Positions 1,057 to 19,902 of a stretch of DNA of 64,000 bases are shown in pieces. Every line of letters starts with the position of its first letter. Position 1 is the stretch's first letter. The stretch lies in IMG/VR virus record IMGVR_UViG_3300022660_001620; one strand, 5' to 3'. The notes beneath the pieces are model-generated. The model did no database searches. It had not been told where the DNA came from and saw only the letters and a program-made list of their open reading frames with translations. Made by a program: the position numbers and the translations under genes. This stretch comes from an uncultured virus (IMG/VR IMGVR_UViG_3300022660_001620). Lineage: Duplodnaviria > Heunggongvirae > Uroviricota > Caudoviricetes.

Positions 1057-1077
1057 GTTTCCCGAAAGGATGATGCA

Positions 1078-3198: not shown

Positions 3199-3241
3199 CC
3201 TCACACCCTGTCTGGCTTTTTTCATTTCAAGGAGGTATTCA

Positions 3242-3427: not shown

Positions 3428-3506
3428 AACCACCATCAAGGCAGGATGTGCGTTGTTCATAAAATGTTTGCAAATAAAATGCACATTCTGTCTTGACGAA
3501 ACGCTT

Positions 3507-4445: not shown

Positions 4446-4623
4446 TGGAAGAAATCTGGACGGATATGAAAGATGTTCTTGTCCATTTGGCATCTCTCCA
4501 GTAATCCCCGACAACTTGTCGGGAAGTCGCAGTTTCGACTGCGACTTTTACATACCACTTGACATCATTGTGTGTTTTCACACGATAAGGTACAATATAA
4601 GTGAAAGAAAGGAGCTGACCCTT

Positions 4624-4911
4624 ATGATGAAAATGGTATTGAAAGTATTCGCACTCCCTGTGCTTCTCGTAACAAAAATTGTATGTATCCTTGGCAATCT
4701 GCTCACCAATATATCCTCCTATGTGATTGGACTGTTGCTTCTGGTTCTCGCTGGCTGTGCGATTTTCTGCGTGGTCAAAGCCATGTGGGAATCCCTGGCT
4801 ATCCTTGCGGTCATGGGTGTTACTGCAATCGCAGTAATCTTTCTCTTGATGTGGGTTGTAGTTAAGGCAGAGACCTTCAGTGATTTTCTTGGAGATTTCC
4901 TCCACTCGTAA
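4624..4911 (+). CDS. CD1845-like small membrane protein
   Basis: MKMVLKVFALPVLL..., hydrophobic, upstream of relaxase; AAGGAG RBS. Confidence 0.6.
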   Translation: MMKMVLKVFALPVLLVTKIVCILGNLLTNISSYVIGLLLLVLAGCAIFCVVKAMWESLAILAVMGVTAIAVIFLLMWVVVKAETFSDFLGDFLHS

Positions 4912-4930
4912 AACTGAATATGAAATATCA

Positions 4931-4960
4931 GAGAAGTCACCGTTCGGTGACTTTTTCTTT
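4931..4960 (+). terminator. Terminator-like hairpin
   Basis: GAAGTCACC-GTTC-GGTGACTTT followed by T run. Confidence 0.55.
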
Positions 4961-4980
4961 TGGAAAGGATGTGATGGGAT

Positions 4981-6375
4981 ATGGCTGCAACCCGATTGAT
5001 TGCTCTCCATGTGAACAAGGGAAAAACGGTCGCTCAGTGTCTGGCTGATCGAACCGACTATTCGCAGAATGCGGCAAAGACTAATGATGGTGAGTTCATA
5101 AGTTCATTTGAGTGCGATCCCAAAACCGCTGATGAAGAATTTCTTCTTTCAAAAAGGCAGTACCAACACAAAACTGGCAGGCAGCAGAAAAACGATACAA
5201 TCGCCTACCAGATTCGCCAGTCTTTCAAACCCGGCGAAGTTACACCGGAGGAAGCAAACCAAGTCGGATATGAAACGGCAATGCGCTGGACAAAGGGTAA
5301 ACACGCTTTTATCGTGGCAACCCATATCGACAAGGCTCATATACACAACCACATCATTTATAACTCAACGACGGTTGATGGTTCCCGGAAGTTTGATAAC
5401 TTCTTCCTGTCTGGGCTTGCAGTTCAGAAACTCAGTGACCGTGTTTGTGCAGAGCATGGACTTTCCATCATCACGCCCAAGCCCTATCGTGAAAGAGTTA
5501 AGCGAACAGACTATCCCAAGCGGCGCAGTCAGCGTGATGATCTGTGCGAAGCTATCGACAATGTTCTGAAAGAAAAACCAAAGGATTTCGCAGAGTTTTT
5601 GCAATCCCTCTCTGCTATGGGCTATGAGTTCAAGGACGGTAAGCAACCGGCGTTCAAGGGAAAAGGACAGAAACGATTTATCCGTCTGCGCTCCCTGGGC
5701 GACGGTTACAGTAAAGAAGAACTTCGTGCAGTGATCTCTGGTAAGAGTCTGCATAAGACAAATTTCCGCAAAGCGCAGCCGAAACAGTTCAACTTGCTCA
5801 TTGACATCGAATCCAAAGTGGCTGAAGGAAAATCTGTCGGCTACGAAAAATGGGCAAAGAAGTTCAATCGAAAAGAAGCTGCCCGTACCGTATGCCTTTT
5901 GAAAGAAAAAGGCATTGGGAATTACGAGGATCTGGTTGCCCTGACAGATAAATTATCTTCCCGCTTTTCGGAGCTTTCTGATTCTATCAAGGACTCAGAA
6001 AAAAGAGTTATTCAGCTTCAGGCGTTGTTGGAACACATGGACAATTATTCCGCAACAAGACAAACCTATGTGGAATACCGCAAAGCCGGTTACAGCAAAA
6101 AGTTTTTCGAGGAGCATCGTCAGGAGATTACACTTCACAAGGCCGCAAAGAAAGCCTTTGATGAATTAAATCTGACGAAGCTCCCACTCCGCAAATCGGT
6201 GTATGAGGAAATTCATCAGCTGACAGTCCAAAAGAAAAAGGACTACGCAGAATACCGTCAGGTCAAGAAAGATATGCAGGAATATCTGATTGCCAAGAAA
6301 ACTGTCGAGACGATTCTGAACATCGACAAAAAGAAAGAGCAGGAAAAAGAACAAGAAAAGAAAACTGTTCGATAA
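4981..6375 (+). CDS. Relaxase/mobilisation nuclease (MOBP-type)
   Basis: MAATRLIALH, AYQIRQSFKPGE, HUH motif HIDKAHIHNHII. Confidence 0.9.
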   Translation: MAATRLIALHVNKGKTVAQCLADRTDYSQNAAKTNDGEFISSFECDPKTADEEFLLSKRQYQHKTGRQQKNDTIAYQIRQSFKPGEVTPEEANQVGYETAMRWTKGKHAFIVATHIDKAHIHNHIIYNSTTVDGSRKFDNFFLSGLAVQKLSDRVCAEHGLSIITPKPYRERVKRTDYPKRRSQRDDLCEAIDNVLKEKPKDFAEFLQSLSAMGYEFKDGKQPAFKGKGQKRFIRLRSLGDGYSKEELRAVISGKSLHKTNFRKAQPKQFNLLIDIESKVAEGKSVGYEKWAKKFNRKEAARTVCLLKEKGIGNYEDLVALTDKLSSRFSELSDSIKDSEKRVIQLQALLEHMDNYSATRQTYVEYRKAGYSKKFFEEHRQEITLHKAAKKAFDELNLTKLPLRKSVYEEIHQLTVQKKKDYAEYRQVKKDMQEYLIAKKTVETILNIDKKKEQEKEQEKKTVR

Positions 6376-6431
6376 AGAAATTGCCGTCGTTATTTCTCCA
6401 TCTGGAGCGATAGCGGCGACAGTCTTTTTTT
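6376..6431. terminator. Bidirectional terminator-like hairpin between convergent genes
   Basis: TTGCCGTCGTTAT...ATAGCGGCGACAG flanked by A and T runs. Confidence 0.45.
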
Positions 6432-7101
6432 ATTCGTACCTTGGCGGACAATAGAAAATCAGTAAGTCCAACTCAATTTCTTCTGGGTTATCTTTGTTTT
6501 CTCGTCGATCAATGTCGATGTAATAATCGCCAAAAGTAAAAGCGGTGATATTTTCTTCAAACAGTCGAAATTCAAGCGTTTCAAAATTGATAACTCCGAT
6601 TCCATAAGGCTCATCCCATGCTTCGTTCATAATTGTAGTTAAGCAATCTTGGCAGAGCATAGACTCTATGCTATTTTTGTCTACAGAATCATTGGATTTG
6701 AGATAAACATGAACATCAGCATATCCTCGGTCTGGATTAGCATTAACGCTGGTTGAGATTCCATCTTCACCGAAACTGTTATGTGTTATGCTCATGTGTC
6801 CTGCGGCTTCTTCAATCAAGTTTCCATAGTCATCGTAGCGGTTAATCGCTACCGGAGACATGTCGAAGTTGTTGATGCAGATGATACCGACATTGTTTTG
6901 TCCTGCATAAGCAGGTAAGAGTGTTTTTCCTTGCTTGCTGCATAGCCAGCAGTTCTCTTTTTCAATCTTGGATGTGTAAATCACTTCCTCTTTTTCTTCT
7001 GCATCGTATTTTACTTGAGTGCCGGAGTCAGGAAGTTCCGATTTAGAGCATCCGGTTAGAGCCAATAGTAAGCAAAATAAAAAAATGAGTTTTCTTTTCA
7101 T
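6430..7101 (-). CDS. Lipoprotein of unknown function
   Basis: MKRKLIFLFCLLLALTGC lipobox; two CxxC motifs. Confidence 0.75.
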   Translation of the reverse strand: MKRKLIFLFCLLLALTGCSKSELPDSGTQVKYDAEEKEEVIYTSKIEKENCWLCSKQGKTLLPAYAGQNNVGIICINNFDMSPVAINRYDDYGNLIEEAAGHMSITHNSFGEDGISTSVNANPDRGYADVHVYLKSNDSVDKNSIESMLCQDCLTTIMNEAWDEPYGIGVINFETLEFRLFEENITAFTFGDYYIDIDRRENKDNPEEIELDLLIFYCPPRYE

Positions 7102-7120
7102 AAGGATTCCTCGCATGAGT

Positions 7121-7585
7121 TTATTTTGCCAGATTGATAATCTGTAAGCCTTTCTTTTCAGCATAACGCAAGGTAGTATAGGCTCCACCAAAATCTCTAT
7201 AAACAAATGCCACTAACCAATCGCTTTTCTCAACCATCCAACGGTTTCTCTTTCCAATAGCAGATTTGTAATGGACACCGGCAAGCTCGATAGGAACAAC
7301 TATATCATCATAGCTCGCTTCATAGAAATCTTTATTATCATTAAGTTCTTGTGTGAGATACGGCAAGACAATCTCTAAGCTGATCTGTTTGTTAGGAAAA
7401 TTCTTCTTGGCTTTGCGTACTGCGGAAGAACACATACCGTCAAAATCACCCATCCCTCCAACAAGGAATCTGAAGCTGTCATCGCATTCGATAATTTTTG
7501 AAATAGCTTCGTCCAAGCTGTCAGAAATATTTGTTTGATATACTTCTCTGTGACCGGCAAAAGTACATACCGTCACATTTCTCAC
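7121..7585 (-). CDS. SLOG-superfamily (DUF1273/YspA-like) protein
   Basis: CTFAGHR, GGMGDFD, RNRWMVEKSD, GGAYTT. Confidence 0.75.
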   Translation of the reverse strand: MRNVTVCTFAGHREVYQTNISDSLDEAISKIIECDDSFRFLVGGMGDFDGMCSSAVRKAKKNFPNKQISLEIVLPYLTQELNDNKDFYEASYDDIVVPIELAGVHYKSAIGKRNRWMVEKSDWLVAFVYRDFGGAYTTLRYAEKKGLQIINLAK

Positions 7586-7693
7586 ACCCTTAATGTTTAT
7601 TTTCTTGGCTGTTATATAACTTTTACAGTCACATTATCAATTAAAATAATAACGAGTATACTCGTGTAGCCGACACCTTTAGTGTCGTTCAAA

Positions 7694-7795
7694 GGGGATT
7701 GGGGATGCTGCCCCAACAAGCAAATTTTCACGATTACCTCGAATGAGATAATCGTGAAAATAGGGGAAGTGGTACCACTTCCCACTGCTTGCCAA
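7694..7795 (+). other. Putative oriT: three inverted repeats followed by a GCTTG^CCA nic-like site
   Basis: TTGGGG..CCCCAA; 13-bp IR ATTTTCACGATTA/TAATCGTGAAAAT; perfect 20-bp palindrome GGGAAGTGGTACCACTTCCC 7764-7783; GCTTGCCA 7787-7794 resembles pC221-type MOBP nic. Confidence 0.6.
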
Positions 7796-7801
7796 TTTGT
7801 G

Positions 7802-8278
7802 TTAGAGAAGAAAAAGCAATGCTCCTAATATTATGCCTGCGCATCCTAAAACTCCACCAAGGAAAGAGGATTTATATGTAATGCCGCCCAGTTTATCTAT
7901 CGTGATTTCAAAAAAGATGTATGCAAATAGCGGTATTATCATTACTTGCAATCCAAGCATAGATAATAATTTATTGCCAAAACCCCATGTGGAATAATTA
8001 TTAGCCAAATCGTTAAGTAAGAAAAGTAGATAATTTGCCGCAACTATTGATCGTAATAAATTCCAACCTGTGAACCAATATACGAGACGCTTAGAATACT
8101 TTTTTATGATTGGCAAAACCTCAATCAATATTACTAACAAAAAGAAAGCATATATTCCGGCTTTTATTGCAAACCAATTCTGAGTAATCCACAGAGTTGC
8201 GCTAAGTGCAAGTGAATCCGCACACAAAGATATTACAAAAAACAAAATAAATAATAATTCAAAAGATATGATGATCAT
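7802..8278 (-). CDS. Multi-pass membrane protein
   Basis: About five hydrophobic segments; last gene of the AT-rich operon. Confidence 0.65.
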   Translation of the reverse strand: MIIISFELLFILFFVISLCADSLALSATLWITQNWFAIKAGIYAFFLLVILIEVLPIIKKYSKRLVYWFTGWNLLRSIVAANYLLFLLNDLANNYSTWGFGNKLLSMLGLQVMIIPLFAYIFFEITIDKLGGITYKSSFLGGVLGCAGIILGALLFLL

Positions 8279-8299
8279 TTCTTCTTACCTGTCATATAA

Positions 8300-9418
8300 T
8301 TAATCATTGTTATCTAATAAGAGATTTTTAAGGTTGTTATTTACAAGAATATCACTATTAAAAAGGATTTTGCTCAGGCTAAAAATGAGCTGAGCTTGTT
8401 TTCTTAATCCCATTTCTCGAAATGTTCGTGACATTGAGATAATTGATTTTATTTTTGCTTTATCAAAATCTTCTAAAGTTTTGGCATCTGAGGAAGTAAC
8501 AATATCATAAATATTTTCGATCAATTCTTCACGTTCGTCTACAGACATTGCTTTAATCCACGAGTTAATAATTTTTTCAAACTGCTTTCCAGAAAGAGTT
8601 CTGGAATTATCATAAACAAAATGTTTACCAGAAACTATCCATGAAAATGGATTATGTTGTAAAAGAGACGGACTGGAACTGCGTATAATTGTATAAGTAT
8701 CATGTTCCATTAGAACACCTACAATAGATGATTCTGGGACAAAAGATTGTATTTTCATTCTAATGTCAAGATAGTAATCTGCATTCAAAAAATTTTCATT
8801 AAAACCAGGTGCATCATTGCTAAAAATGTTTATGATACGCTTTTTATGTTCAGAGGAGAGATGTGCGCTTGCCCAAATGGACAAATTACCACCTTTGGAA
8901 TGACCGCCTAAACGTAATGGAAGGTCAATTTCTTGAGCAATCGACTCAACATATTTTGCGGCTTCAAGCTGAGACGGAATACCATCAATAAAACACATAT
9001 TGAGGTCTTCTTTCCATCCAACCAAGGTATTATCTGTCCCTCTGTATGATATAAATGCTGTTGTATCTTGAAGTATAAATGTAACAGCTGCGAATTGTAT
9101 TTCTAATTTCTCATCTGTAATGTCAACAAATTTAAACACTCCCATATCTCTGTAACGTTCAGCGGTTGCAGCTTTATTGGCTAAGGCTACAACATCTTCC
9201 ATTATAATTCCTGGACCATCAAATTTTTGTTCGTCAGGCATTGAATTTATTTTTTCTACAGCATCTCTAAAGAATATAATCTCATCCTTTACACATGAAA
9301 AATCCAGATATGCAAATATGGAAAGTATTAGTGCATCAATTTCGTTAAATGCACTCTGCTGAAAAGATAAGTCCCCTCGCCACTCTATATAATCAAAAAC
9401 ATCAGATTTTTTTCCCAT
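8300..9418 (-). CDS. DUF2974 (Mbeg1-like) alpha/beta-hydrolase/lipase
   Basis: YRGTD..LVGWKED, GHSKGGN, DAPGF, QHNPFSW. Confidence 0.85.
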   Translation of the reverse strand: MGKKSDVFDYIEWRGDLSFQQSAFNEIDALILSIFAYLDFSCVKDEIIFFRDAVEKINSMPDEQKFDGPGIIMEDVVALANKAATAERYRDMGVFKFVDITDEKLEIQFAAVTFILQDTTAFISYRGTDNTLVGWKEDLNMCFIDGIPSQLEAAKYVESIAQEIDLPLRLGGHSKGGNLSIWASAHLSSEHKKRIINIFSNDAPGFNENFLNADYYLDIRMKIQSFVPESSIVGVLMEHDTYTIIRSSSPSLLQHNPFSWIVSGKHFVYDNSRTLSGKQFEKIINSWIKAMSVDEREELIENIYDIVTSSDAKTLEDFDKAKIKSIISMSRTFREMGLRKQAQLIFSLSKILFNSDILVNNNLKNLLLDNND

Positions 9419-9446
9419 TTACGCTCCTTTGTGCAAGTTAGAAGGA

Positions 9447-9542
9447 TTAGTTGTTATGATGAATAAACAATGTAATAAGACCGGCAATGATTGCCAATAC
9501 CATGCCGATGCTTCCTATGACTTTCCATTTGGACTTATTCAT
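9447..9542 (-). CDS. 31-aa single-TM peptide (not in the ORF track)
   Basis: MNKSKWKVIGSIGMVLAIIAGLITLFIHHNN*; GGAGGAG RBS; start overlaps the patatin 3' end. Confidence 0.6.
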   Translation of the reverse strand: MNKSKWKVIGSIGMVLAIIAGLITLFIHHNN

Positions 9543-10413
9543 GTATTTCTCCTCCTTCAGTTATTTTGTCATGGCGGATGATTTTTTTTGCAAGTTTATT
9601 TAGATTAGTCACAATTACATCGCCAGTTATTCTTACAGTTCTATGACTACTATTAGTAGCATTAATTTCAGCAATTCTATTATGTATAAAATCCAAATCG
9701 TCAAAACCATTTGAGAAGATAAATGTCATAATCTCCTTGGTTCTTCTATATCCTTCATTTATCATTCGTATAATAGAATCGTGTTGGATAAAAACCGAGT
9801 TTGATACAATCTTTTTATCTGGGAATGTTAGCCTGATAACTTTTTTGTCAGAGTCAACATCTTCAAAGATGTAATTGACATCATCAAAATAGATGCAAAT
9901 TACATAATCCAAATGTTCTTTTAGAACGGGATAAACTGGAATATTATCGACGACTGCACCGTCGTAAAGAGATTTCGTTCCGATTTTCACTCCTCTATTA
10001 TAAAATGGCATTGCAACACTTGCGCACAAATATTGTTGCATATCCGCTGGCACAATCGAAGAAAAATCATAGTATTCAAGTTCTCTGCTTGAAAGATCAA
10101 GTAATGGAACATAAAATGTGTTTTCAATATTCTTATCTACTACAATATTTTCAATAATTTCTTGCAGAAATGTACTTTTCAATACAGATGTAATAAATCG
10201 TTTATTACCTTCAAGATTAACATTTTCCCAAATATTCTTTGCTTTTTCTAAATTGTCGGTTAGAAAAGCATATGTATTCAAAGTGCCAATTGAAGCAGCA
10301 CTGACATATTCAAAGTCGGAAGGAAGAAAGAACTCACTAATTGCAGTTAAAGCACCAATCTGGTAAGCACCCTTTCCCATTCCTCCCGATAATACTAATC
10401 CTATATGTTTCAT
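9535..10413 (-). CDS. Patatin-like phospholipase
   Basis: LVLSGGMGKGAYQIG, AASIG nucleophile, ASVAMP, DGA. Confidence 0.85.
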   Translation of the reverse strand: MKHIGLVLSGGMGKGAYQIGALTAISEFFLPSDFEYVSAASIGTLNTYAFLTDNLEKAKNIWENVNLEGNKRFITSVLKSTFLQEIIENIVVDKNIENTFYVPLLDLSSRELEYYDFSSIVPADMQQYLCASVAMPFYNRGVKIGTKSLYDGAVVDNIPVYPVLKEHLDYVICIYFDDVNYIFEDVDSDKKVIRLTFPDKKIVSNSVFIQHDSIIRMINEGYRRTKEIMTFIFSNGFDDLDFIHNRIAEINATNSSHRTVRITGDVIVTNLNKLAKKIIRHDKITEGGEIHE

Positions 10414-10443
10414 TTTTTCTCCATAATCTGTGATTTGATATCA

Positions 10444-10800
10444 TCAGAAGTAGTATTCGAGTAAATTTTTGTTTTTAAAGAAACACTCATCAATAATATT
10501 GAATTTTGCCCATGTATCACTTTCAAAGCGATATACAATAAAGTCGTTATCTCCGGTATCAAAAAGCGGAAGAATCTTTAATGTGCTAAAATCAACATGA
10601 AGATCTTCGGAAGCTTCCAGAACTTCTTTTGTTGAAAGAGTTCTCCAACCGTTCTCAAAAAAGATACTTTCCTGAGAATAGGAGATAATTTTTTTGACAA
10701 TCATAGGCAATTGCATTCCGTATTTTGCTTCTATTTCTTTAATTACATCTTTATTTTCTGATTGATTTTTCAGCTGTAATATAAACTCTTTCCCAGTCAT
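10444..10800 (-). CDS. SMI1/KNR4 (SUKH) family immunity protein
   Basis: IKEIEAKYGMQLP...ILPLFDTGDNDFIVY; directly after the HNH toxin gene. Confidence 0.75.
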   Translation of the reverse strand: MTGKEFILQLKNQSENKDVIKEIEAKYGMQLPMIVKKIISYSQESIFFENGWRTLSTKEVLEASEDLHVDFSTLKILPLFDTGDNDFIVYRFESDTWAKFNIIDECFFKNKNLLEYYF

Positions 10801-10808
10801 AGCCTACC

Positions 10809-11456
10809 TCACAACATTTTATCTAATTTACTATAAGGACTATCAGGAGCATGAACCCCCTGCTTATCATAATGTTCATTTGCATGAAGTGGCGTAATAT
10901 TCGAAGCTTCATTTTTTCCACCCATGCCAAGTGGCTGAATATGATGGGCATCATAATCTCCACCCGCTTTTCTTATCATTTTCCCGTTCGATGAATATAC
11001 ATCGTTATCGTATTTGGGCCATGGTTGTCCATGTTCTTCAGCCCATTGTTTCTTTAAATCTGATTTTTTATCATCAAACTCATCACGTTTAGCAGCGGTT
11101 TCCTCTGGTGACAATTTCTTAAGATCTCTTGACTCAAAAGGGCGATCCTTAATAGTATCAGGGCAATCGGAACGATTTTTTAGGTCACTAAAATAATTGT
11201 TTAGATTTGATTCAATATTTTCCGGTTGCTTTTTTTCAACGGCTTGTTCATGCGGACGGACAGTATTAAGTTTTCCTTTTCCATCATTATCAGATGATGA
11301 ATCAATTTTACTAGTTCTACATCTTTCGAAATTATCAGAGGATCGCTCTAACTTCCGCTTATCTATTGAAGATGGAGCAGTATTCTCAGCCATTCCTTTT
11401 GTAGCCACTCCTTTTTCAGGATTCTCGGCTTCATCAAAATTACCTATACGGGCCAT
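10809..11456 (-). CDS. HNH-nuclease polymorphic toxin with shared N-terminal leader
   Basis: WPKY...YDAHHIQPLGMGGKNEASNITPLHANEH...GVH. Confidence 0.8.
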   Translation of the reverse strand: MARIGNFDEAENPEKGVATKGMAENTAPSSIDKRKLERSSDNFERCRTSKIDSSSDNDGKGKLNTVRPHEQAVEKKQPENIESNLNNYFSDLKNRSDCPDTIKDRPFESRDLKKLSPEETAAKRDEFDDKKSDLKKQWAEEHGQPWPKYDNDVYSSNGKMIRKAGGDYDAHHIQPLGMGGKNEASNITPLHANEHYDKQGVHAPDSPYSKLDKML

Positions 11457-11483
11457 AGCATATTACCTCTATGTATTGTAAAT

Positions 11484-11777
11484 TTACCAACGGCTGAGTG
11501 TTTTCTGTTTAGTTGCAGGGGATGCAGGTGAATCCCATTCTGTATTATGCGTTGGTTTTCCATCCCAGCGATAAGCATACGATGGTTTATCTGAAAGTTT
11601 ATCTTTACCAGAGTCATTTTTCTCTGGTATATAACTGTATTTGGATTTTGTATCTTCCGTGCGTTCTAACTTTTGTTTATCTGCTTCTGCTGGCGTGATT
11701 GCTTTTTCAAAAGCATTTGATTTATTTGGTGTTTGCTCTGGGCTTTCTGACTCTTTAAAACTATCAATTCTAAGCAT
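11484..11777 (-). CDS. Small hydrophilic protein with shared leader
   Basis: MLRIDSF...DKQKLER...GKDKLS. Confidence 0.7.
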   Translation of the reverse strand: MLRIDSFKESESPEQTPNKSNAFEKAITPAEADKQKLERTEDTKSKYSYIPEKNDSGKDKLSDKPSYAYRWDGKPTHNTEWDSPASPATKQKTLSRW

Positions 11778-11841
11778 TGTATTCCTTCATGGCAATGCAG
11801 TACACCACCCATCAACATCGAAGAAAGTAATATGATGTATG

Positions 11842-12825
11842 TTATTGTTTATTATGATATACATATTCTCGTAATATCCACTCATTGTTACCGCTTGAGT
11901 CGATTTGCAGTGCATCAAGCAATTTTTCCGTGTCTACATCGCCATTTCCCTTTCTGCATTTGTCAATAGTATCAGCACTGGTAAAATAGTTGCTCGTTTT
12001 ATCGTTATCTGCCGAACGTAATTGATAAAACACCTCTCCATCTTTTAATTTTCTCGAAGAACCAAAAGCATCTTGATTCATACCAAGGTTCTCCTGGTTG
12101 GAATGCGGATAATTATAATTTTCTATTTCGTTTCGTTCGTTATCATTTTTTATTACTTTCGGCAGATCTCGAGTTGGTCTTGTGCTGTTATTTAATTGCT
12201 GCCATTCTTTATTTTCTGATTTAGAAAGCGGTGTATTATCCACACTAAAAGATTTCCCTTGATTTTTTACATTATTTTTATTCTCTGGAAGTTCAGCAGG
12301 TGTGTTCCTCGTGTTTTCATCAAGTTGCTTCCATATATTTTTCTCTGATTTAGAAAGTGGGGTAGAGTCAACCATTACCGTAGGCGTTTTTATGTTTCCA
12401 TTTTTAGTTGCTGAATCTTTATGTTGCAACTTTTCTTCTCCGACCTTTTCTAAGTAACCTTCTTTGAGCGGAATCCTTCCGTCTTCTCGCAATGGTTGAT
12501 TGCCTGCATTGCGAACAAAAAATTGTTCTCCACCACCTTTTCCATATTTGGGGTTTTCACAGACTGTACCCGATTGAACTAAGTCTCCTGGCTTTTGACG
12601 AATCTGATTTTTATTGTTCAATCGCTCTTTGCCAGTGGTAAGCTTCTGGCTCTCAGAATCCATCTCAATCTTCGGATTGGATAAGATGGATTCTGAGGTT
12701 TTGTTTCCTTCTTGATGAGCAAGCTTTTTTCGCTCATCTTCTGTAACAGATGGGATTGATTCCATTTTATTCTTTGGTTGTGTTTCAAATTTTTCAATTC
12801 CATCAAAATTGCCTAATTTACCCAT
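11842..12825 (-). CDS. Leader-bearing protein with putative permuted TNT/ART-like toxin domain and an internal repeat
   Basis: MGKLGNF leader; GTVCENPKYGKGGGEQFF at aa 86-103; LKDGEVFYQL..SNYFT..ALQI..REY at aa 260-321. Confidence 0.6.
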   Translation of the reverse strand: MGKLGNFDGIEKFETQPKNKMESIPSVTEDERKKLAHQEGNKTSESILSNPKIEMDSESQKLTTGKERLNNKNQIRQKPGDLVQSGTVCENPKYGKGGGEQFFVRNAGNQPLREDGRIPLKEGYLEKVGEEKLQHKDSATKNGNIKTPTVMVDSTPLSKSEKNIWKQLDENTRNTPAELPENKNNVKNQGKSFSVDNTPLSKSENKEWQQLNNSTRPTRDLPKVIKNDNERNEIENYNYPHSNQENLGMNQDAFGSSRKLKDGEVFYQLRSADNDKTSNYFTSADTIDKCRKGNGDVDTEKLLDALQIDSSGNNEWILREYVYHNKQ

Positions 12826-12830
12826 ATTTG

Positions 12831-13121
12831 TTATTCACGCTCAGTTTCATATCCACGTTCTAACTGACGCTGACCTCTTGATGTATCCCCTTCAGAAGAT
12901 GTATTGTTTGAACGTTCTAATTTTTGACGATCTTTTGCATCCTGTGATTGCTCATTAAGACTTTTTCTTTGTTCTTCAGGAGATTTATCTTGGAATCGAT
13001 CTAATTTTCCCTTAGCTTCAGGTGTTTGTTTTTCAGGAGTCTGTGTTATTTGATTTTTAGGTTTTACATCAGGCATTTCTGCTTCATGACCTTCACGATT
13101 TCTATTACCAAACCATTTCAT
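12831..13121 (-). CDS. Small charged protein built from KL(E/D)R motifs
   Basis: AKGKLDR, DRQKLER, GQRQLER; AAGGAG RBS. Confidence 0.7.
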   Translation of the reverse strand: MKWFGNRNREGHEAEMPDVKPKNQITQTPEKQTPEAKGKLDRFQDKSPEEQRKSLNEQSQDAKDRQKLERSNNTSSEGDTSRGQRQLERGYETERE

Positions 13122-13151
13122 GTTGATTCTCCTTGCATAATATTTTTATGA

Positions 13152-14798
13152 TTAGCCCATTGCAAGCATAAGCCAAAACAGTAGTGTCAAAATGCTACCA
13201 ACCGTGCAAACAATATATTTTGTTCTATGGTCAGGCTCAGGATCGCTGGATAAGCCGTAAAATCCTGCTATTGTAGAAATAGGAAGAAGGAATGGCCAAA
13301 TTATTCCAATTAGCCAACACCAAAGTGCGACTTTTCCTGTTGTACTCGGTTTCACCTTTGAGATGACTTCAATATTGCAAATAGCCGCCAATTTAGAGTC
13401 GGAATCGTAGCAGCGGACATTACCTTTTCCTTCATAATTTGTAGATGCAATTACTTGACATCTCTTTCCTGTTTTAGAAGGATTGATGGATGCAATAGTT
13501 TTGTTATCCAGTTCCCAAATGAGGTTTTCGGTAGGTGCATCAGAAGGACTTACATTGCATTCAAGAATAAATGTTTCTCCTGTTTTCAAGCGAACTGACT
13601 GTTGCGAAAAACTTAAATTCTGCAAAGCAGGTTTTACTTCAACCACCAGTGAAGCACTTGTTGCATAGCCAGATACAGTAATTGTTGCCTTACCGTTCTC
13701 GAGTGCAATTATGTTACCACTTTCGTCGACCTGGATAACATTGGGATTAGAAATATTCCATGAGAGTCGGTTGGCATCTTCGGCATTTAAAGGTGTAATA
13801 ATTACATCAATACGATTTCTTTCGCTGCGCTTCAAATACTCAAAACGAGGGATAAGTCTGATTTCCTCTACATATTGATGTTGAATTACAGAAATCTGTT
13901 TTTGAGCAACTACCTCATTTTTATCATTTATGATAGAAATAAAAGTGGTTCCACCTTCATGTGCAGTAACTGTGTCAGCACTACATGAAATGATAGATTC
14001 GTTTTCGCTTCTAAGTGAAAATGCAGTTGTTGGGAAACTTGCAAATTCAATCGGAGTGCTTTTCCCTTTATCTAAAGAAGCTGGAATATCTGTAATATAG
14101 TAGCCAGGAGCATTGTTTTTTATTGAATCCAGCTCTGCTTTCTGGGTCGGGTTTAATTTGGCATATCTCAATGCAGTTATGTATTCCTCGATTAAAGGAC
14201 GAGTAATGAGTTCAAATACTATGTAATCCCAGAATATCGGCATTTCTGTTTGCGGGATAGCATAGTATGCTCGATTCCCAAGGTTCTTGTACGAAACATT
14301 ATCTGAAATGATAATAGGAATACGAACCGTCGAAGGTATTTCGTTTGGGTTAACAAAAACACCAATATCTGCCTTCGGACTATCAACGATGGATAAATAG
14401 TCACTTTTAGGAACGGATGAATTGGAAGGATTGTAAACCGTAATATTAGCATTTTTTTCTACTGTTATATTATTTTGTTCGCTAATAATCGCAAGGCGTT
14501 CTAGAAGCTCTGATGGATCATAGAGCGATTCAATCTCGTGATGCTGAATCGCTTTGCAAAATTCCGATTGACCTGAAGTAGTCAAAAGTAATTTATAAGG
14601 ATACAGCTTACCATAAAAATCAATTTGGTAATCATCGAAAATCTCATTGTCCAGCCCAGGAATAATATTATGGAACGCTTCCATATAAGGGCGATTTAGT
14701 GTTGTGGTAAGTTCACTGTAGGGACTGACCTTTTCTCCATTTATTGTTACCTCTGCTTTACTGGAGAAATATGAATATCTTATTTCTACTTGGTTCAC
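13152..14798 (-). CDS. Ig-like (Big_2) domain protein with C-terminal membrane segments
   Basis: LSWNISNPNVIQVDESGNIIALENGKATITV and LIWELDNKTIASI repeats; hydrophobic C-terminus. Confidence 0.75.
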   Translation of the reverse strand: MNQVEIRYSYFSSKAEVTINGEKVSPYSELTTTLNRPYMEAFHNIIPGLDNEIFDDYQIDFYGKLYPYKLLLTTSGQSEFCKAIQHHEIESLYDPSELLERLAIISEQNNITVEKNANITVYNPSNSSVPKSDYLSIVDSPKADIGVFVNPNEIPSTVRIPIIISDNVSYKNLGNRAYYAIPQTEMPIFWDYIVFELITRPLIEEYITALRYAKLNPTQKAELDSIKNNAPGYYITDIPASLDKGKSTPIEFASFPTTAFSLRSENESIISCSADTVTAHEGGTTFISIINDKNEVVAQKQISVIQHQYVEEIRLIPRFEYLKRSERNRIDVIITPLNAEDANRLSWNISNPNVIQVDESGNIIALENGKATITVSGYATSASLVVEVKPALQNLSFSQQSVRLKTGETFILECNVSPSDAPTENLIWELDNKTIASINPSKTGKRCQVIASTNYEGKGNVRCYDSDSKLAAICNIEVISKVKPSTTGKVALWCWLIGIIWPFLLPISTIAGFYGLSSDPEPDHRTKYIVCTVGSILTLLFWLMLAMG

Positions 14799-14818
14799 AC
14801 CAGTGTCCTCCTATTTGT

Positions 14819-17800
14819 TTATTTTATCTGTGTATAAATCTGACGATACAAAATGCTATAACTGATTGCATGATGCTCGAACTTCTTCGAATGAAGAATA
14901 TATTGCCGAACAATTTCACGATAAGTATCATCAATAGATACATATTGTGGAAGTGCATTATCAATATGGCTGTACCATTCAGATAATGATTCGTCGGTAT
15001 AACATTCGATTAAATTACCTTCATCATCAGTTTTATATTCAAGGTATTTTTCTGCTTTCCTAAATGCATCATTACACCCAACTAAACGCAACATTGTTCG
15101 TCCGAACAAAATGCTATCGTAACCTTTGGCCATAATGCGGTTAAATTGGACGAGCATTCGGAGCATTTCTGCTTTTTTAGATGGTAATATATCAAATTCC
15201 TCTACCTTGCTAATAACCTTGCTAATATCCTGCTCGTCAGTCAATTCAAATTGATTTATTAGCTCTGAAAGAACGACACTTCTAAATTCCTTGAGTTTCT
15301 CAAATGTTATTGGCTGTTCATAACCTTCATAAGGGTGTTTTGCTTCATTTATCTTAGACAATACTGGAACGGACCAGTTGTTTTGCATAACAACTGCAAC
15401 ACCAGTTTCTAATTTTGCCAATTCATCCGTTTGTTGTTCAGTAAGGGAAACTGAATGTCCGGCAATCTTACAATCTTCATCCTCTGGAAGTCTCATAATG
15501 ATTTTTGTGTTTGTGTTTTTTATAGCAGCTATGTCTACGGAGGTAGGAGACTGGTCCACAATAACAAAGCCTTCTCCATAAGTTCTCATTTCTGCAATGC
15601 TGTTAACAATCATTTCTACAGATTTAGCAACAACATTGTTGCCAGCAGTACCTTGTGAATTCTTAGAATTTTTCAAGATATTATGCGCTTCTTCCAAAAT
15701 TGTTAGATGCTTTAATGCAGAATTACCACGATTGGCGTTTGCCATGCGATGTTCTGTGAGTTTTAGGATCAAAATACCCATAATCAGTGATTTTGTTTCA
15801 GAAGATCCAACTCTACTCAAATCAACAATCGTATTTTCGTCAAATAAAGTTTTGTTATCAACTTCAAACTCATCGCAAAAAATTTGGCCATAAATGCCAT
15901 TAGTCATAGAGTTTACTCGTGTAACAAGAGCACCAATATAGTCTCCTTTTGTATCAGCTGAGTATTCCGAACTATTGATTATTTTGGGGAGTTCCTGTAA
16001 AACGTCTATGAAGGTAGGAAATACAGGTTCACCCTCGCCAATATATACAGAATTTAATAAATCCCATCCCTTACTTACATAAGCTTCTTCAATAGCTTCT
16101 TTAAGTATTGCAGGCATTGCTGCATACATCTCCCAGCATCCATTAAAAATCTCAACTATACGATCCAGGTGTTCCAAAATATGAATACCTTCGCAAAAAG
16201 CAAACGGATTCAATTTTAGCATTTGGTCAATTTGAGGATTGGTGCTGAATAAATTTATGTTTTTAACGTTTCGGAACTCATTGCGATATTCGCCTTTCGC
16301 TGGTTCAATGACCAAAAATGGTATTTTGAATGGTTCCTTTGTTACTTCTTCAATCAATTTGTAGATTGTATTTGATTTACCACTACCTGTTGAGCCAGTT
16401 ACAAAACAATGAGAAGTTAAACTATCAATATTTAGTTTGACAGGAGCATCTTCTTTTTGCCCCATATGGTAGATATGCCCCAGCTCTATTTCTCTTTGTT
16501 TATAAGCTGTGTTGGAAAGCACATTTCTACCAAATTCAGCCATTTCGGTAATCATTATTCCGTTAACTGATTTTCTTGGCAAATTCAACAACTGCGTTAA
16601 CTCCTTTCCGTTGATATAACTGGTAGGAGATAATGCTTGTATATGCTCCGTGTTATTTGAACCATTAAAGACTGGAATTAAAAAAGTCGGGTGCTCACAA
16701 TAGCATAGTGACTCTTCAATACTTGCAGTTATATTGTCAGTACTGTCAAAAAGAGTAAAATTAGGCTTTTCAATACCGGTTTCTTCTCCTAATAATAGAG
16801 AGCGATAAGAGCTTGCAGCAATAGCAGCCGTTTTCTTTTCTTTTGCCATAAAATATGATGCAACTTCCCAAACACCATAAGAACTGCCTGTTTTAAGTCT
16901 TTTTATGTGTCGCTCAATTTTCTCTAAAAGGTTTTCGATACTTTTATCTCTGAATTCAATCGTCAAGTTATCTGTTGTACCAGTAGTTTGGGATGTGGAT
17001 TTCTGGCGAGAAAATGCATCTGTCCTTGTACTTGTATCGGTATTGGTACTTACTTCATTAGAGCCAGTAGACCATCCCTCATTAGTTCCAGTAGTAACAC
17101 CAAAATTTAGTAACATATGCATACCCATATTAAATCCAGAATTTTTACCGTGGGTATGTCCGTCAGAACGTCCAGTCGCCTTAGAGATACCTTTTGAGAT
17201 AGAATCAGAAATACTTTCTGTGATGCCTTCAGTCAAAGTAGTTCCCTCATTGTGTCCATGAGAGCTTGTTTTTTTAGAAAAAGGAAAAAGTGCTGAATAT
17301 AGTTCCTCAAAACCATTCATTCGGTATTCTATTTCGCTGTCTCTTATAGGAGAAGCAATTATCTCACACAGATATTCGCTTCCTCGCATGGTATCAATAA
17401 ATTTTTCTAATCCTTGGATGTATTCCCCCTGTTTAGAATTACGTTCTGAGGGGAGAATATTTACATATGCAATGTTTCTCGGAGTATGTTCGCATTCGCC
17501 TTCATTAAATATTTCGCTGATTTGGCTGGTCTTAATTGCATTTATTTTACTTCCTGGAAAGTTTCCAAGAAACGAGTCGTGTAACACTTCGCTGGCTGTT
17601 GCCGCATTGCTGATTTGTGAAGCTCGAATTCCAAAGTAAAGGTCAACACAATCCGATGATCCTTTCAGTATCATGACGATATTTTTACAAAATGGCATTA
17701 CAGCATGAAAAACACTTATGAGTTTTTCATTTATATCCTCGTTTTTGTCATATACAATCTTTTGAATATGAAATAATCTTGTTAAATTATGTTTTTTTAA

Positions 17801-17923
17801 GTATGTGTCCAATGGATGGACACGATAATCATGCAATGCTTCCAAGTAACTTTTATCAATAAATTGATTTGCTGCTTCGATTTGAGCGAGCATCTGTGTT
17901 TCCGTAATCATACTATTTACCAC
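14819..17923 (-). CDS. HerA/FtsK/VirB4-like ATPase (DUF87-type), 1034 aa
   Basis: Walker A GSTGSGKS, VIEPAKGEY, Walker B LTILEEAHN, EMRTYG, VDQSP. Confidence 0.85.
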   Translation of the reverse strand: MVNSMITETQMLAQIEAANQFIDKSYLEALHDYRVHPLDTYLKKHNLTRLFHIQKIVYDKNEDINEKLISVFHAVMPFCKNIVMILKGSSDCVDLYFGIRASQISNAATASEVLHDSFLGNFPGSKINAIKTSQISEIFNEGECEHTPRNIAYVNILPSERNSKQGEYIQGLEKFIDTMRGSEYLCEIIASPIRDSEIEYRMNGFEELYSALFPFSKKTSSHGHNEGTTLTEGITESISDSISKGISKATGRSDGHTHGKNSGFNMGMHMLLNFGVTTGTNEGWSTGSNEVSTNTDTSTRTDAFSRQKSTSQTTGTTDNLTIEFRDKSIENLLEKIERHIKRLKTGSSYGVWEVASYFMAKEKKTAAIAASSYRSLLLGEETGIEKPNFTLFDSTDNITASIEESLCYCEHPTFLIPVFNGSNNTEHIQALSPTSYINGKELTQLLNLPRKSVNGIMITEMAEFGRNVLSNTAYKQREIELGHIYHMGQKEDAPVKLNIDSLTSHCFVTGSTGSGKSNTIYKLIEEVTKEPFKIPFLVIEPAKGEYRNEFRNVKNINLFSTNPQIDQMLKLNPFAFCEGIHILEHLDRIVEIFNGCWEMYAAMPAILKEAIEEAYVSKGWDLLNSVYIGEGEPVFPTFIDVLQELPKIINSSEYSADTKGDYIGALVTRVNSMTNGIYGQIFCDEFEVDNKTLFDENTIVDLSRVGSSETKSLIMGILILKLTEHRMANANRGNSALKHLTILEEAHNILKNSKNSQGTAGNNVVAKSVEMIVNSIAEMRTYGEGFVIVDQSPTSVDIAAIKNTNTKIIMRLPEDEDCKIAGHSVSLTEQQTDELAKLETGVAVVMQNNWSVPVLSKINEAKHPYEGYEQPITFEKLKEFRSVVLSELINQFELTDEQDISKVISKVEEFDILPSKKAEMLRMLVQFNRIMAKGYDSILFGRTMLRLVGCNDAFRKAEKYLEYKTDDEGNLIECYTDESLSEWYSHIDNALPQYVSIDDTYREIVRQYILHSKKFEHHAISYSILYRQIYTQIK

Positions 17924-17943
17924 CTAATTACAAAAATATATGA

Positions 17944-18000
17944 AAAAACACGATAAAAGATAATCCTCGCAAGTGAGAATCAATCTTTTATCGTGTTTTT
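17944..18000. terminator. 18-bp inverted repeat (terminator/attenuator)
   Basis: AAAAACACGATAAAAGAT ... ATCTTTTATCGTGTTTTT. Confidence 0.65.
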
Positions 18001-18050
18001 GAAAGTTCTAACACGCTAACTGACTGTAACGTATAATCGTTATGTAATGT

Positions 18051-18353
18051 TTATCTCAGCTTGCGGCCCTGAGAATCTACCAAGCTATTGCAAAGGATTC
18101 GAATAAAGTCGATAAGTACCCAAATAGCTTCAACAATAATCAGTCCCCATCCCAAAACAGGAATAAAAATACCGCCAATGAACATAACTAACATCACAAT
18201 ACCAGAAGCATGGCTGCCAAGATAAAATCTGTGGACGCCAAGCATACCAAAGAAAAGGCAGAATAAGGCTGTTGCAACTTTACCTTTGTCTGATACCGTA
18301 GACTGAGTTATTACTTCACCTACAGAACCACTATTGTTAAATTCGTCGCTCAT
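18051..18353 (-). CDS. TM2-domain membrane protein
   Basis: LFCLFFGMLGVHRFYLG...IWVLIDFIRIL...DSQG; GGAGGA RBS. Confidence 0.85.
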   Translation of the reverse strand: MSDEFNNSGSVGEVITQSTVSDKGKVATALFCLFFGMLGVHRFYLGSHASGIVMLVMFIGGIFIPVLGWGLIIVEAIWVLIDFIRILCNSLVDSQGRKLR

Positions 18354-18466
18354 AATTTTTTCCTCCGTATTTAGTATGATATAGGAAATAGGTGTCAGGC
18401 AATTTTCGTAGAGTATCTTACTCCACGAAGAAACTATCGGCAACTATTCACACCACATTCATTAGT

Positions 18467-18495
18467 ATTATAATGATTTCGCCTGCTTTTGTCAA
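18467..18495 (-). promoter_or_regulatory. Consensus sigma70/sigmaA promoter for the AT-rich operon
   Basis: TTGACA (18495-18490), 17 nt, TATAAT (18472-18467). Confidence 0.8.
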
Positions 18496-18522
18496 TATCA
18501 TTTGCATCTTTTTCTTTGCCCA

Positions 18523-18551
18523 GGAAAAGTCAAGCATTAAATGCGAACAAA
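18523..18551. repeat. Candidate IS30-type terminal inverted repeat at the prophage left end
   Basis: Minus strand TTTGTTCGCATTTAATGCTTGACTTTTCC resembles IS30-family ends; sits at the GC transition. Confidence 0.35.
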
Positions 18552-18688
18552 TTTCACCGTCTAATTTTGTCTAATTTGAACATAACAACCAGGCCACCGT
18601 TGAAACGCCCAGCCGGTAGCCTGCTCTGAATGGTATTCCTTTCCATGCAAAGTGTCCCTTTCGTCGCCCTCTCTCCCTTAATGATATG

Positions 18689-19762
18689 TTATGCCGTCAG
18701 TCCGATTTCCTGTAAACACTGCTTAAACATGATCTCGCTGCTCATGTAGCCGAGTATCTTGCGGGGGTAATTATTTATCCACTGTTCCGTCGCGGCGATC
18801 TCCGCCTTGCTCACCTTTGCAAAGTCGGTTCCCTTTGGATGCTTGCGCCGAATCATAATATTCTGGTTCTCGTTGCTGCCCCGCTCCCATGAGGAATACG
18901 GATGGCAGAAGTAAATCTTTGTCCGGGGAATCGTCTTATTGATAACAGAACGCTCCAGCTCCTCCGCCGCCGAAAACTCAGAGCCGTTGTCTACTGTGAT
19001 GCTCCTGAACACCTTTCGGAAGATCGGAGCACCCAGCTTTCTTTCCAGCGCGTCGATGGCCTTGACGACGGTTTCCGCCTTTCGATTTGGGATTAGCACG
19101 ATGATCTCCCGCCGGGTTTTTCTCTCGGTCAGCACCAGCAGGGCCTTTGTGGAGGTATTCGCGCCGCTGTAAACCGTGTCCATTTCCCAGTGACCAAAAA
19201 TTTCCCGGTTATCGACCTCTACCGGGCGGCGCTCGATGCTCTCACCAGCCGGGGCGCGGGCAGGCTCCTTAGTTTCCACCCGCTTATAACTGGCCTTGTG
19301 CTTTCCCCTCCGGGGCAAATCAACCTGAGTAAGCCGCAGGAACACACCCTTTTTGATATAGCTGTACACCGTTGCCACAGACACGGAAGTTTTGAACACT
19401 TTCCCCTCCATTTGTGCATAACCCAAAACGGCGGCAGGGCTGCAATCATTGGCAATGATCGTTTCCTCAATGTAGGTCGCAAGCTCATGGTCATTACCGA
19501 TTTTCAGATCAGGCCCTTTCTCCCGCAGATTGGCTTGATACCGTTCCTCTGCAATGTCCGGGCTGTATGCCGTGGTCATTTCCCATGTGTCGCCGTTCAG
19601 CCGCTCATAGGCTCCGCGCTTCAATTCACGGTAAACCGTGGAAACATGAACGCGCAGCTTCCCGGCGATCTCGCCGGGCTTTAATCCCATCCGCAGCCAC
19701 TTTTCGATTCGCAGTCTGTCCGACTTCGTTAGGTGTTTGAATGTCCGCTTTGTGCTTTGCAC
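18689..19762 (-). CDS. IS30-family DDE transposase
   Basis: HTH VHVSTVYRELKRG; GHWEMDTV, ITVDNGSEF, SWERGSNEN, INNYPRKILGY; probable GTG start at 19762 after GAGGGGAGG. Confidence 0.9.
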   Translation of the reverse strand: MQSTKRTFKHLTKSDRLRIEKWLRMGLKPGEIAGKLRVHVSTVYRELKRGAYERLNGDTWEMTTAYSPDIAEERYQANLREKGPDLKIGNDHELATYIEETIIANDCSPAAVLGYAQMEGKVFKTSVSVATVYSYIKKGVFLRLTQVDLPRRGKHKASYKRVETKEPARAPAGESIERRPVEVDNREIFGHWEMDTVYSGANTSTKALLVLTERKTRREIIVLIPNRKAETVVKAIDALERKLGAPIFRKVFRSITVDNGSEFSAAEELERSVINKTIPRTKIYFCHPYSSWERGSNENQNIMIRRKHPKGTDFAKVSKAEIAATEQWINNYPRKILGYMSSEIMFKQCLQEIGLTA

Positions 19763-19902
19763 AGTGGAAACCTCCCCTCTGGTATCTGCGCAGGCGGTGT
19801 CGGTTTTTCCGTTCCGTTCTGCTTGTCGCATTTTGTCTTATTTACGCCCCTATCATAATTCACAATTTCGTTTTTCGCAACTTATTTATTGCAAATGAAC
19901 GC

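Follow-up and report, generated by a model that had tools for sequence, protein, structure and literature searches.

Why would several adjacent genes encode proteins that begin in the same way and end in entirely different ones? The question is raised by a 64,000-nucleotide (nt) stretch of DNA from an uncultured virus of the Caudoviricetes (IMG/VR record IMGVR_UViG_3300022660_001620), the whole of which we call the window. Within it, three neighboring minus-strand genes encode proteins of 327, 97 and 215 amino acids (aa), p327, p97 and p215, which share an N-terminal segment, the leader, and stand downstream of genes for a HerA-like ATPase, its partner F1 and a small protein, p96. An earlier note on this DNA, made from the sequence alone, had taken the leader for a trafficking or processing tag and had suggested that p96 and p97 might be carriers functionally like WXG100 proteins. 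We found that the leader is a genuine, conserved and position-specific module tied to the ATPase/F1 pair. We put at about one half the probability that it is a clade-specific targeting tag for the ATPase-driven export of polymorphic effectors, the export itself being what we infer. The genes on which the argument turns are as follows:

14819..17923, minus strand: HerA-like ATPase, 1034 aa (Pfam DUF87, E 4.7e-13)
13152..14798, minus strand: F1, 548 aa, partner protein with immunoglobulin-like (Ig) and transmembrane (TM) parts (Pfam Big_2, E 2.7e-12; AlphaFold model)
12831..13121, minus strand: p96, small highly charged protein (family hidden Markov model, HMM; good ribosome-binding site)
11842..12825, minus strand: p327, leader (aa 1 to ~78, window 12592-12825) followed by cargo (leader profile; no Pfam match)
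11484..11777, minus strand: p97, leader (aa 1 to ~65, window 11562-11777) followed by a W-rich conserved tail of ~30 aa (BLASTP, Smith-Waterman, profile)
10809..11456, minus strand: p215, leader (aa 1 to ~66, window 11241-11456) followed by a probable HNH-type nuclease (BLASTP, Smith-Waterman)
10872-10964, minus strand: HNH motif of p215, aa 165-195 (Pfam HNH, E 0.013, under the cut-off)

A leader shared by proteins with unrelated C-termini

The open reading frames (ORFs) lie where the earlier note had placed them, all on the minus strand, and the N-terminal starts and motifs that it quoted are present exactly. Over their first 65 residues, p97 and p215 were identical at 23/65 positions (35%; BLASTP E 4e-7), and their Smith-Waterman score of 83 stood against 31.1 ± 5.7 for shuffled sequences (z 9.1; 0/1000 shuffles as high). 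The pairwise scores of p327 against p97 and p215 were marginal (z 2.6 and 2.1; 24 and 37 of 1000 shuffles scored as high), and BLASTP gave no N-terminal match between p327 and either of them; p327 is joined to the other two through profiles and homologues. The claim of a shared N-terminal leader is thus borne out, and so is the claim that the C-termini of the three proteins are mutually unrelated, as judged by sequence comparison and alignment.

The leader is a segment of 40-70 aa whose bipartite motif reads M-x-[KR]-[IL]-G-[NK]-[FL] and, further on, D-[KR]-x-K-L-[EDN]. The three copies in the window are about neutral (12-14 K+R versus 13-14 D+E per 70 residues) and contain no hydrophobic stretch. 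Furthermore, the highest 15-aa hydropathy within the first 60 aa was at most 1.04 in 38/38 candidate cargo proteins, that is, there was no Sec signal or TM segment in any of them. At the DNA level the three leaders are only modestly similar; they are old copies that selection has maintained and not recent conversions.

Outside the window, the leader was sought in two sets of loci, both gathered through the ATPase. The genome set consisted of 24 ATPase-containing genome loci and the window itself (25 loci; 2689 six-frame ORFs), L024 and L026 being excluded as they hold ATPase fragments only; the metagenome set consisted of 76 further loci (4043 ORFs and 4043 shuffles). An HMM made from the leaders of p327, p97 and p215 found, besides its seeds, three matches in the genome set: a 344-aa protein in L002 (2e-13), a 99-aa protein in L007 (1e-5) and a 201-aa protein in L003 (8e-4). 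All three matches begin at residue 1 and all three proteins occupy the slot after F1, and the best shuffled ORF reached E 1.4. A six-sequence profile (A2) then matched 14 ORFs of the metagenome set at E<=1e-7, with no shuffled ORF at E<=1. All 14 lie past F1/p96 on the same strand as the ATPase, and in each the alignment begins at residue 1; they are spread over 7 loci in which the ATPase is 80-95% identical to that of the window, and the proteins of L038 and L042 are identical. Throughout the loci examined, leader proteins sit one to three genes past the ATPase and membrane-protein pair.

Database searches gave a similar picture. The A2 profile retrieved 15 proteins from an index of 5.8 billion, and among 1.84 billion representative proteins it had 10 matches at E<=1e-3, of which 9/10 aligned from residue 1; the remaining match, to a repeat protein, is probably false. 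Across 23 aligned leader proteins of 5 cargo types, M1, K35 and L36 never vary, and at least 90% of the proteins keep G5 and D32. The bipartite motif, written as a regular expression, matched 7/2689 ORFs, all of them cargo-slot proteins (including L023_342), compared with 1 match in 20 shuffled replicates, a post hoc pattern that serves as description only. A short motif at the extreme N-terminus, ^M.{1,2}[ILE][GS][GNKS], is enriched in cargo (10/22, against 33/872) and is only suggestive because it too was written after seeing the sequences. Two candidates were discarded: a Planctomycetia match from a locus search that started from the P0020 protein was spurious, and a pair of N-terminal look-alikes in L011 was not significant by BLASTP (E 1.1).

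Could the resemblance still be no more than a chance effect of K/E-rich composition, or a leftover of tandem duplication that has no function? The region is of low complexity and highly charged, the pairwise scores of p327 and p96 are marginal and the leader DNA shows the modest similarity noted above, as such an origin would allow. On the other hand, an accident fits poorly with the z of p97 against p215, with position-specific profile matches set against the shuffles of both sets, and with an invariant K-L and conserved G5 and D32 across 23 proteins of 5 cargo types, and we give it hardly any credence. The earlier note had expected an HMM of the leaders to find diverse toxin C-termini near this ATPase family, and had named as a test whether the motif alignment is significant against shuffled sequence and whether the matches are linked to the ATPase. 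The outcome agreed with both: all matches fall in the cargo slot after ATPase/F1, their C-termini are diverse, the ATPase family stands beside toxins, and the p97/p215 alignment is significant against shuffles.

The small protein p96 is a case of its own. Its family lies directly past F1 in 7 genome loci (by family HMM) and recurs in the metagenome loci, sometimes twice; its conserved motifs are KP[KR]NQILQTPE, KxKL and a C-terminal GQR..ERG.E.ER, and in the window's clade it is a conserved component that always comes right after F1. That p96 is a relative of the leaders, as the earlier note had it, proved marginal. Two methods lean towards it: jackhmmer recruited p96 with a small database and gave E 0.0017 with a fourfold larger one (best shuffle 4.5), and hhalign, set to compare the leader with the p96 family, gave a probability of 34% (E 4e-4, colinear). 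Two others do not, as the pairwise z was 0.5 to 2.8 and the p96 profile scored the real leaders (0.015 to 0.12) about equally with a shuffled sequence (0.075). The idea of WXG100-like carriers found no support: by sequence, none of p96, p97, p215 and p327 matched a WXG100 or LXG family in Pfam even at E<=10, and p96 and p97 matched no Pfam family of any kind at that threshold. Both of these small proteins carry many charges and lack a hydrophobic core segment. p97 has the leader and a conserved 30-aa tail of its own, shared with P0019.

What the leader precedes, and what precedes the leader

At least six unrelated C-terminal cargo types stand behind the one leader, and a seventh is placed there by motif only (L numbers denote loci and P numbers proteins):

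Type 1: p215 type, H-H...N...H motif (Pfam HNH, E 0.013, under the cut-off)
Type 2: p97 type, leader and W-rich conserved tail of ~30 aa; orthologues P0019, L038, L039
Type 3: p327 type
Type 4: P0005/P0020 type (L003, L036, L041)
Type 5: P0011 type (L007)
Type 6: L039_274, L040_271, L037_272 type
Type 7: L023_342, Endonuclea_NS_2; bipartite motif only

No Pfam domain was matched in types 2 to 6. As for type 1, we regard p215 as probably an HNH nuclease that is paired, to judge from sequence similarity, with a SUKH-like immunity protein encoded by the next gene:

10444..10800, minus strand: 118-aa probable SUKH-type immunity protein (SMI1_KNR4 the top family, under the cut-off)

This gene follows the p215-type cargo directly in 4/4 loci. 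SMI1_KNR4 is the top Pfam family for all four proteins and the sole family for three (E 2e-4 to 0.07, all under the cut-off); the window's protein scored 19.2 bits against a cut-off of 25.4, its three orthologues scored 14 to 22 bits, and the L039 orthologue also has a weak SAPI match. A PDB search with p215 (phmmer) returned weak matches only.

The cargo of p327 is circularly permuted relative to that of the P0011 type: p327 aa 238-321 match P0011 aa 79-160 (E 5e-15) and p327 aa 70-118 match P0011 aa 152-203 (E 3e-5), with tandem 'TPLSKSEK..W.QL...TR' repeats of p327 lying between the two matching pieces. P0011 also shows a weak TNT match (E 0.093).

In several other clades, recognized toxin domains stand beside the ATPase family (Colicin-DNase/WHH, GH-E, LHH, TNT and Endonuclea_NS_2), with matches above the Pfam cut-offs. 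A Pfam scan covered 58 neighbors chosen by position together with P0005 and P0011: L008, L009 and L025 carry Colicin-DNase/WHH and then SUKH, L021 carries TNT, and L023 carries Endonuclea_NS_2. In a second architecture, seen in L025 and in five more distant relatives from sampled genomes (L029-L033), two dynamin-family GTPases and a protein of 165-220 aa come before the ATPase, and a small toxin and then an immunity gene come after it. In L029-L033 the pair of small proteins comes directly after the ATPase in 5/5 loci, with Pfam toxin and immunity domains in 4/5; together with L025, the pairs are Colicin-DNase/WHH with SUKH (three), GH-E with SUFU (one), LHH with SUKH (one) and one without a Pfam match. 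The toxins of these dynamin-type loci have no leader in common. The ATPase family is linked to bona fide toxin/immunity pairs across clades.

Another clade repeats the layout of leader and cargo with different sequences. In L016-L022 and most of L051-L110, the ATPase has a Zn-ribbon/TM/M48 metallopeptidase, encoded upstream, as a conserved neighbor, and a hypervariable protein follows F1, starting with MGIEG in 32/35 cases. The first 58 aa of these proteins have a median identity of 0.98, compared with 0.22 for the last 150 aa, where identity is below 0.30 in 259/406 pairs (some C-termini being cut by contig ends). Their layout is a nearly invariant 58-aa leader, hundreds of residues of acidic repeats and then TNT or other C-termini: among 29 such proteins (6 duplicates of 35 dropped), TNT was matched in 15 (9 above the cut-off) and DUF6782 in 8 (1 above), and 12 had none. 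By hhalign, the MGIEG leader is unrelated to that of the window. The M48 peptidase is a candidate for a leader-processing protease.

What stands at the head of these operons? The ATPase is present in 25/25 loci; F1 adjoins it in 23 by clustering and also in L021, where the gene caller had masked it, and this ATPase/F1 core is conserved beside variable proteins. The core of the ATPase is HerA-like, keeps its Walker A and B motifs intact (GSTGSGKSNT and EEAH, invariant in 24 sequences) and matches solved HerA chains at E 1e-11 to 1e-14, flanked by a unique N-terminal region of ~480 aa and a variable, poorly conserved helical C-terminus. It has no TM segment except for one borderline stretch. In databases its relatives are named only 'ATP-binding protein', 'HerA domain-containing' or 'hypothetical'. 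Public data contain at least 390 clusters of the family's sequences at E<=1e-10. The family is sporadic, the N-domain being found at the same threshold in 6/399 evenly sampled Clostridia genomes.

Residues ~215-320 of the ATPase are rich in S, T and G, a pattern that is conserved across 24 homologues and matches part of the NCBIfam 'serine-rich protein' NF033849. In L010, L012, L014 and L019, genes for a vWA protein, a PP2C phosphatase and a Ser/Thr kinase with leucine-rich repeats lie directly upstream of the ATPase, and because one subclade has this phosphatase and kinase upstream, the segment could be a regulatory phosphorylation region; it could also be a structural element. These neighbors are reminiscent of the threonine-phosphorylation control of other secretion systems, by analogy.

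Could the system instead act inside the cell, as an abortive-infection or other defense device? In such a scheme, the ATPase would sense or process invader DNA, the leader would keep effectors (nuclease, NADase and others) tethered to ATPase/F1 pending a trigger, the patatin and lipase encoded at the end of the operon would destroy the membrane, and the 'immunity' genes would be antitoxins. Both PADLOC HerA models (best E 8e-24) and NCBIfam anti-phage HerA models (5e-14) match the ATPase, the patatin is conserved at the operon end, and the island is mobile, low in guanine and cytosine (GC), situated beside a prophage and recorded in IMG/VR. The subclade with vWA, PP2C and kinase genes upstream and the dynamin-family GTPases of the distant type would also suit a defense role. 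However, the nine neighboring proteins matched 0 PADLOC families and the known HerA partners Sir2 and DUF4297 are absent. Colicin-DNase/WHH, GH-E, LHH and TNT domains with SUKH/SUFU are, according to passages of PMC3482391 and PMC3113570, classic modules of secreted polymorphic toxins, and tandem cargo with one conserved leader and hypervariable C-termini fits an arms race with the immunity of competitors. We consider a defense role unlikely.

In the AlphaFold model of F1 (predicted local distance difference test, pLDDT, 89), an alpha/beta N-domain (aa 1-230) is followed by three Ig-like domains (aa 232-480) and a TM hairpin (aa 486-547). With its TM hairpin at the C-terminus and no signal peptide, the bulk of F1 should, according to this model, be cytoplasmic and tethered to the membrane. 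Fold searches gave Ig matches only, to phage and S-layer Ig domains, the closest being T5 pb6 (Z 11.7) and lambda gpV (Z 10.6), and ESM Atlas searches returned nothing beyond unnamed Bacillota clusters. In the second architecture, the large dynamin protein has its first ~77-78 residues in common with F1 (91% probability by hhalign, E 1e-6).

These phage-like domains raise another question: could the leader be a means of assembly or anchoring and not an export signal? It would then dock cargo on a cell-associated or particle-like F1/ATPase structure, for example so that it is packed into vesicles or phage-like particles and set free by lysis or by patatin/dynamin membrane remodeling. Besides the resemblance of the Ig domains to tail-tube and decoration domains, it is in keeping with this that the window's island abuts a prophage lysis module, that dynamin-family GTPases replace the Ig/TM part of F1 and keep its first ~77 residues, and that patatin and lipase genes are conserved without leaders. 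Yet most loci have no phage genes nearby, the ATPase occurs in a single viral record, which is the same DNA as the window, and Big_2 folds are generic. We judge such an anchoring role quite improbable.

We favor the reading of the leader as a targeting tag, which is well supported by context since the leader occurs only in the ATPase/F1 cargo slot, its C-termini are diverse and its neighbors are toxins and immunity genes. This much of the earlier note's trafficking or processing tag stands; trafficking, recognition of the leader, export and any cleavage are steps that we infer. In the mechanism that we propose, leader-bearing proteins would be polymorphic effectors whose C-termini are swapped by recombination, and clients of a machine encoded at the operon head, namely a cytoplasmic, HerA-type, presumably hexameric pumping ATPase with a membrane-tethered F1. 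F1, the variable ends of the ATPase, or both, might recognize the leader; the ATPase would spend ATP on handing or threading the unfolded, disordered N-terminus towards the membrane; and the cargo would leave the producer cell and act on competitors.

Extended to the whole family, this suggests, as a more tentative proposal, a possible export system of monoderm Bacillota that would be undescribed and of a new secretion-system type. A HerA-clade ATPase and a shared 77-residue module, fused either to the Ig/hairpin part or to a dynamin-type GTPase, would recognize disordered clade-specific leaders and convey polymorphic toxins (nucleases, TNT NADases and other cargo) to competitors.

Several observations weigh against an export tag. 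No membrane channel component was identified, the ATPase being without a TM segment and F1 having only its hairpin, and the small membrane proteins vary by clade (TM2, Zn-ribbon/TM or M48). In the window's clade, an immunity-like gene accompanies the HNH-type cargo only, and the other types lack a Pfam domain; in the loci compared, no immunity-like gene follows the p327, p97, P0005, P0020 or L039_274 cargo. Both the nuclease assignment of p215 and the SUKH assignment of its neighbor are beneath the Pfam cut-offs, and hhalign found no relation between the p215 family and the nuclease toxins of other loci. HerA ATPases (as the PADLOC matches show), patatin phospholipases and dynamins also occur in anti-phage systems. 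Finally, the loci were gathered via the ATPase, so the counts do not cover leader proteins encoded elsewhere.

The operon and its surroundings

The island that holds these genes is a single, tightly spaced minus-strand operon, in the order TM2 protein, ATPase, F1, p96, p327, p97, p215, 118-aa protein, patatin, Mbeg1-like protein and 158-aa membrane protein. Shine-Dalgarno-like sequences lie 5' of F1, p96, p97, p215, the 118-aa gene, the patatin gene and the Mbeg1 gene; p327 starts 5 nt past p96, and the 118-aa gene starts 8 nt past p215. Its remaining features are:

18467..18495, minus strand: promoter-like site TTGACA-17-TATAAT, 12/12 match, upstream of the operon; consensus match only
18051..18443, minus strand: TM2-domain membrane protein, first gene of the operon (Pfam TM2, E 2.3e-10; TM-like segment)
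9535..10413, minus strand: patatin-like phospholipase, no leader (Pfam Patatin, E 1e-17)
8300..9418, minus strand: Mbeg1-like (DUF2974) lipase-fold protein, no leader (Pfam E 2.5e-72)
7802..8278, minus strand: 158-aa multi-TM protein, final gene before the terminator-like hairpins (ORF, TM prediction)
7724..7783, minus strand: two terminator-like hairpins at the operon end (sequence)

The promoter-like site is the sole 12/12 match in 7500-18800, and we treat it as a consensus match only because the total number of promoter-like sites (46) is not above that in shuffles (44.5). The real start of the TM2 protein is probably an internal ATG, and its family lies upstream of the ATPase in 5/25 loci (the window, L001, L002, L006 and L007). 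The patatin gene occurs in 6/25 loci and in the metagenome loci of this clade, and an Mbeg1-like gene follows it in the window, L001, L002, L003 (a fragment), L035, L038 and L043; leaderless, the two genes close the operon in nearly all loci of the window's clade. The 158-aa protein is not conserved in the 24 genome loci, and L038 has a truncated 124-aa homologue after Mbeg1.

The island covers ~6-18 kb of the window and has a GC content of 0.33-0.39, in surrounding DNA of 0.54-0.62. The only viral record with the ATPase is a 21-kb IMG/VR entry in which it is identical (100%), the DNA being the same as that of the window. To the right lie an IS30-like transposase (18689-19831) and then a prophage that encodes lysin, reverse transcriptase, baseplate J and tape-measure proteins. 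In the tail/lysis region of this prophage, the reverse transcriptase (RVT_1, E 3.7e-16) adjoins a Listeria-Bacteroides-repeat protein (window 22773-24062 and 24211-25755), a pair that may be a diversity-generating retroelement. Beyond the terminators, at window 6430-7585, a low-GC pair of genes encodes a 154-aa protein (weak YspA/SLOG match, E 4.5e-4) and a 258-aa putative lipoprotein. To the left of the island are MobA, a primase, VapE, a 338-aa fragment of a type IV secretion system (T4SS) coupling protein and a relaxase. Window 1-6375 as a whole is what is left of an element that was mobilizable or conjugative (MobA/MobL fragment, primase zinc finger, VapE, piece of the coupling protein and MobA/VirD2 relaxase), with a GC content of 0.46-0.48, between the values of the island and the prophage.

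Could the leader then serve a known route that is encoded elsewhere, such as type VIIb secretion (T7SSb) or a conjugative T4SS, with the neighboring ATPase unrelated to trafficking? The truncated coupling protein and the relaxase lie 5 to 15 kb away in the window, and of the host genomes, G004, which has the distant type of the system, carries two EssC genes. However, the coupling protein is the fragment just described, the leader was found only in the slot after the ATPase/F1 pair in the loci examined, and the cargo has no WXG or LXG domain. Moreover, G002, a host of the leader system, has no EssC above the cut-off, and G003 has sub-threshold pieces only. We hold this explanation to be very improbable, and retain the targeting tag for the neighboring ATPase as the reading to be set beside known systems.

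Comparison with known systems

A literature search, which did not extend to subscription journals, found no description of polymorphic toxins encoded beside a HerA-type ATPase that has Ig/TM or dynamin partners. With the HerA anti-phage systems (Sir2-HerA and DUF4297-HerA), the window shares a HerA-like ATPase core and a mobile island; unlike in those systems, the match spans the ATPase domain only, Sir2 and DUF4297 are missing and the neighbors are toxin/immunity cassettes. The dynamin-like systems LeoABC and Eleos resemble the distant architecture with its two dynamin-family GTPases beside the ATPase; in the window, F1 stands in their place and shares only its first ~77 residues with the dynamin protein. 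LeoABC and Eleos are not known to have a HerA-type ATPase or toxin/immunity pair.

The likeness to the polymorphic toxin systems outlined by Zhang et al. 2012 (PMC3482391) extends to a conserved N-terminus with hypervariable C-terminal toxins (HNH-fold nucleases, TNT), to SUKH/SUFU immunity, to tandem cassettes and to mobile islands. The difference is that several cargo types here have no recognizable toxin domain or immunity gene. The HerA/FtsK passages of the same paper name as ATPase-linked routes only the type I, type IV and type VII secretion systems (T1SS, T4SS and T7SS) and the Photorhabdus virulence cassette (PVC), and this leader and the ATPase/F1 pair are not among the subjects of those passages.

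A route of this kind would have a place to fill. A 2026 mBio paper (PMC13556189) describes a Bacillus nuclease effector that is secreted without an active T7SS, and states that most effector-positive metagenome-assembled genomes of gut Bacillota have no dedicated toxin secretion system, the mechanism being called unknown there. The ATPase and the cargo leader are a concrete candidate machine for polymorphic toxin release in gut Bacillota, and, if the export-system reading is true, it could explain how gut Clostridia without T7SS deliver their toxins. The leader, for its part, offers a sequence handle for finding the effectors of this machine, including cargo families of no known function.

A further parallel is T7SSb of Bacillota, with its EssC/YukB ATPase and its LXG and WXG100 substrates. 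ATPases of the FtsK/HerA superfamily power substrate export in T7SS and T4SS, as passages of PMC3482391 and PMC3113570 set out, and both T7SSb and the system in the window belong to monoderm hosts, place such an ATPase beside polymorphic toxins with a conserved N-terminus, variable C-termini and downstream immunity, and encode small accessory proteins between machine and toxins. The parts, on the other hand, differ. Unlike EssC, with its FHA domains, TM segments and several FtsK domains, the ATPase has one HerA-like P-loop domain, no TM segment and its own N-terminus of ~480 aa, with FtsK_SpoIIIE of Pfam matching at 24.2 bits over 56 residues only and no EssC model of NCBIfam at E<=0.01; F1, TM2 and p96 are unrelated to EsaA, EssA and EssB; and the leader, as predicted from sequence, is a disordered charged segment of 40-70 aa and not a helical LXG/WXG bundle. 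The logic that would link the leader to its ATPase is analogous to that of LXG/WXG domains with EssC, and the proposed apparatus is built from unrelated parts.

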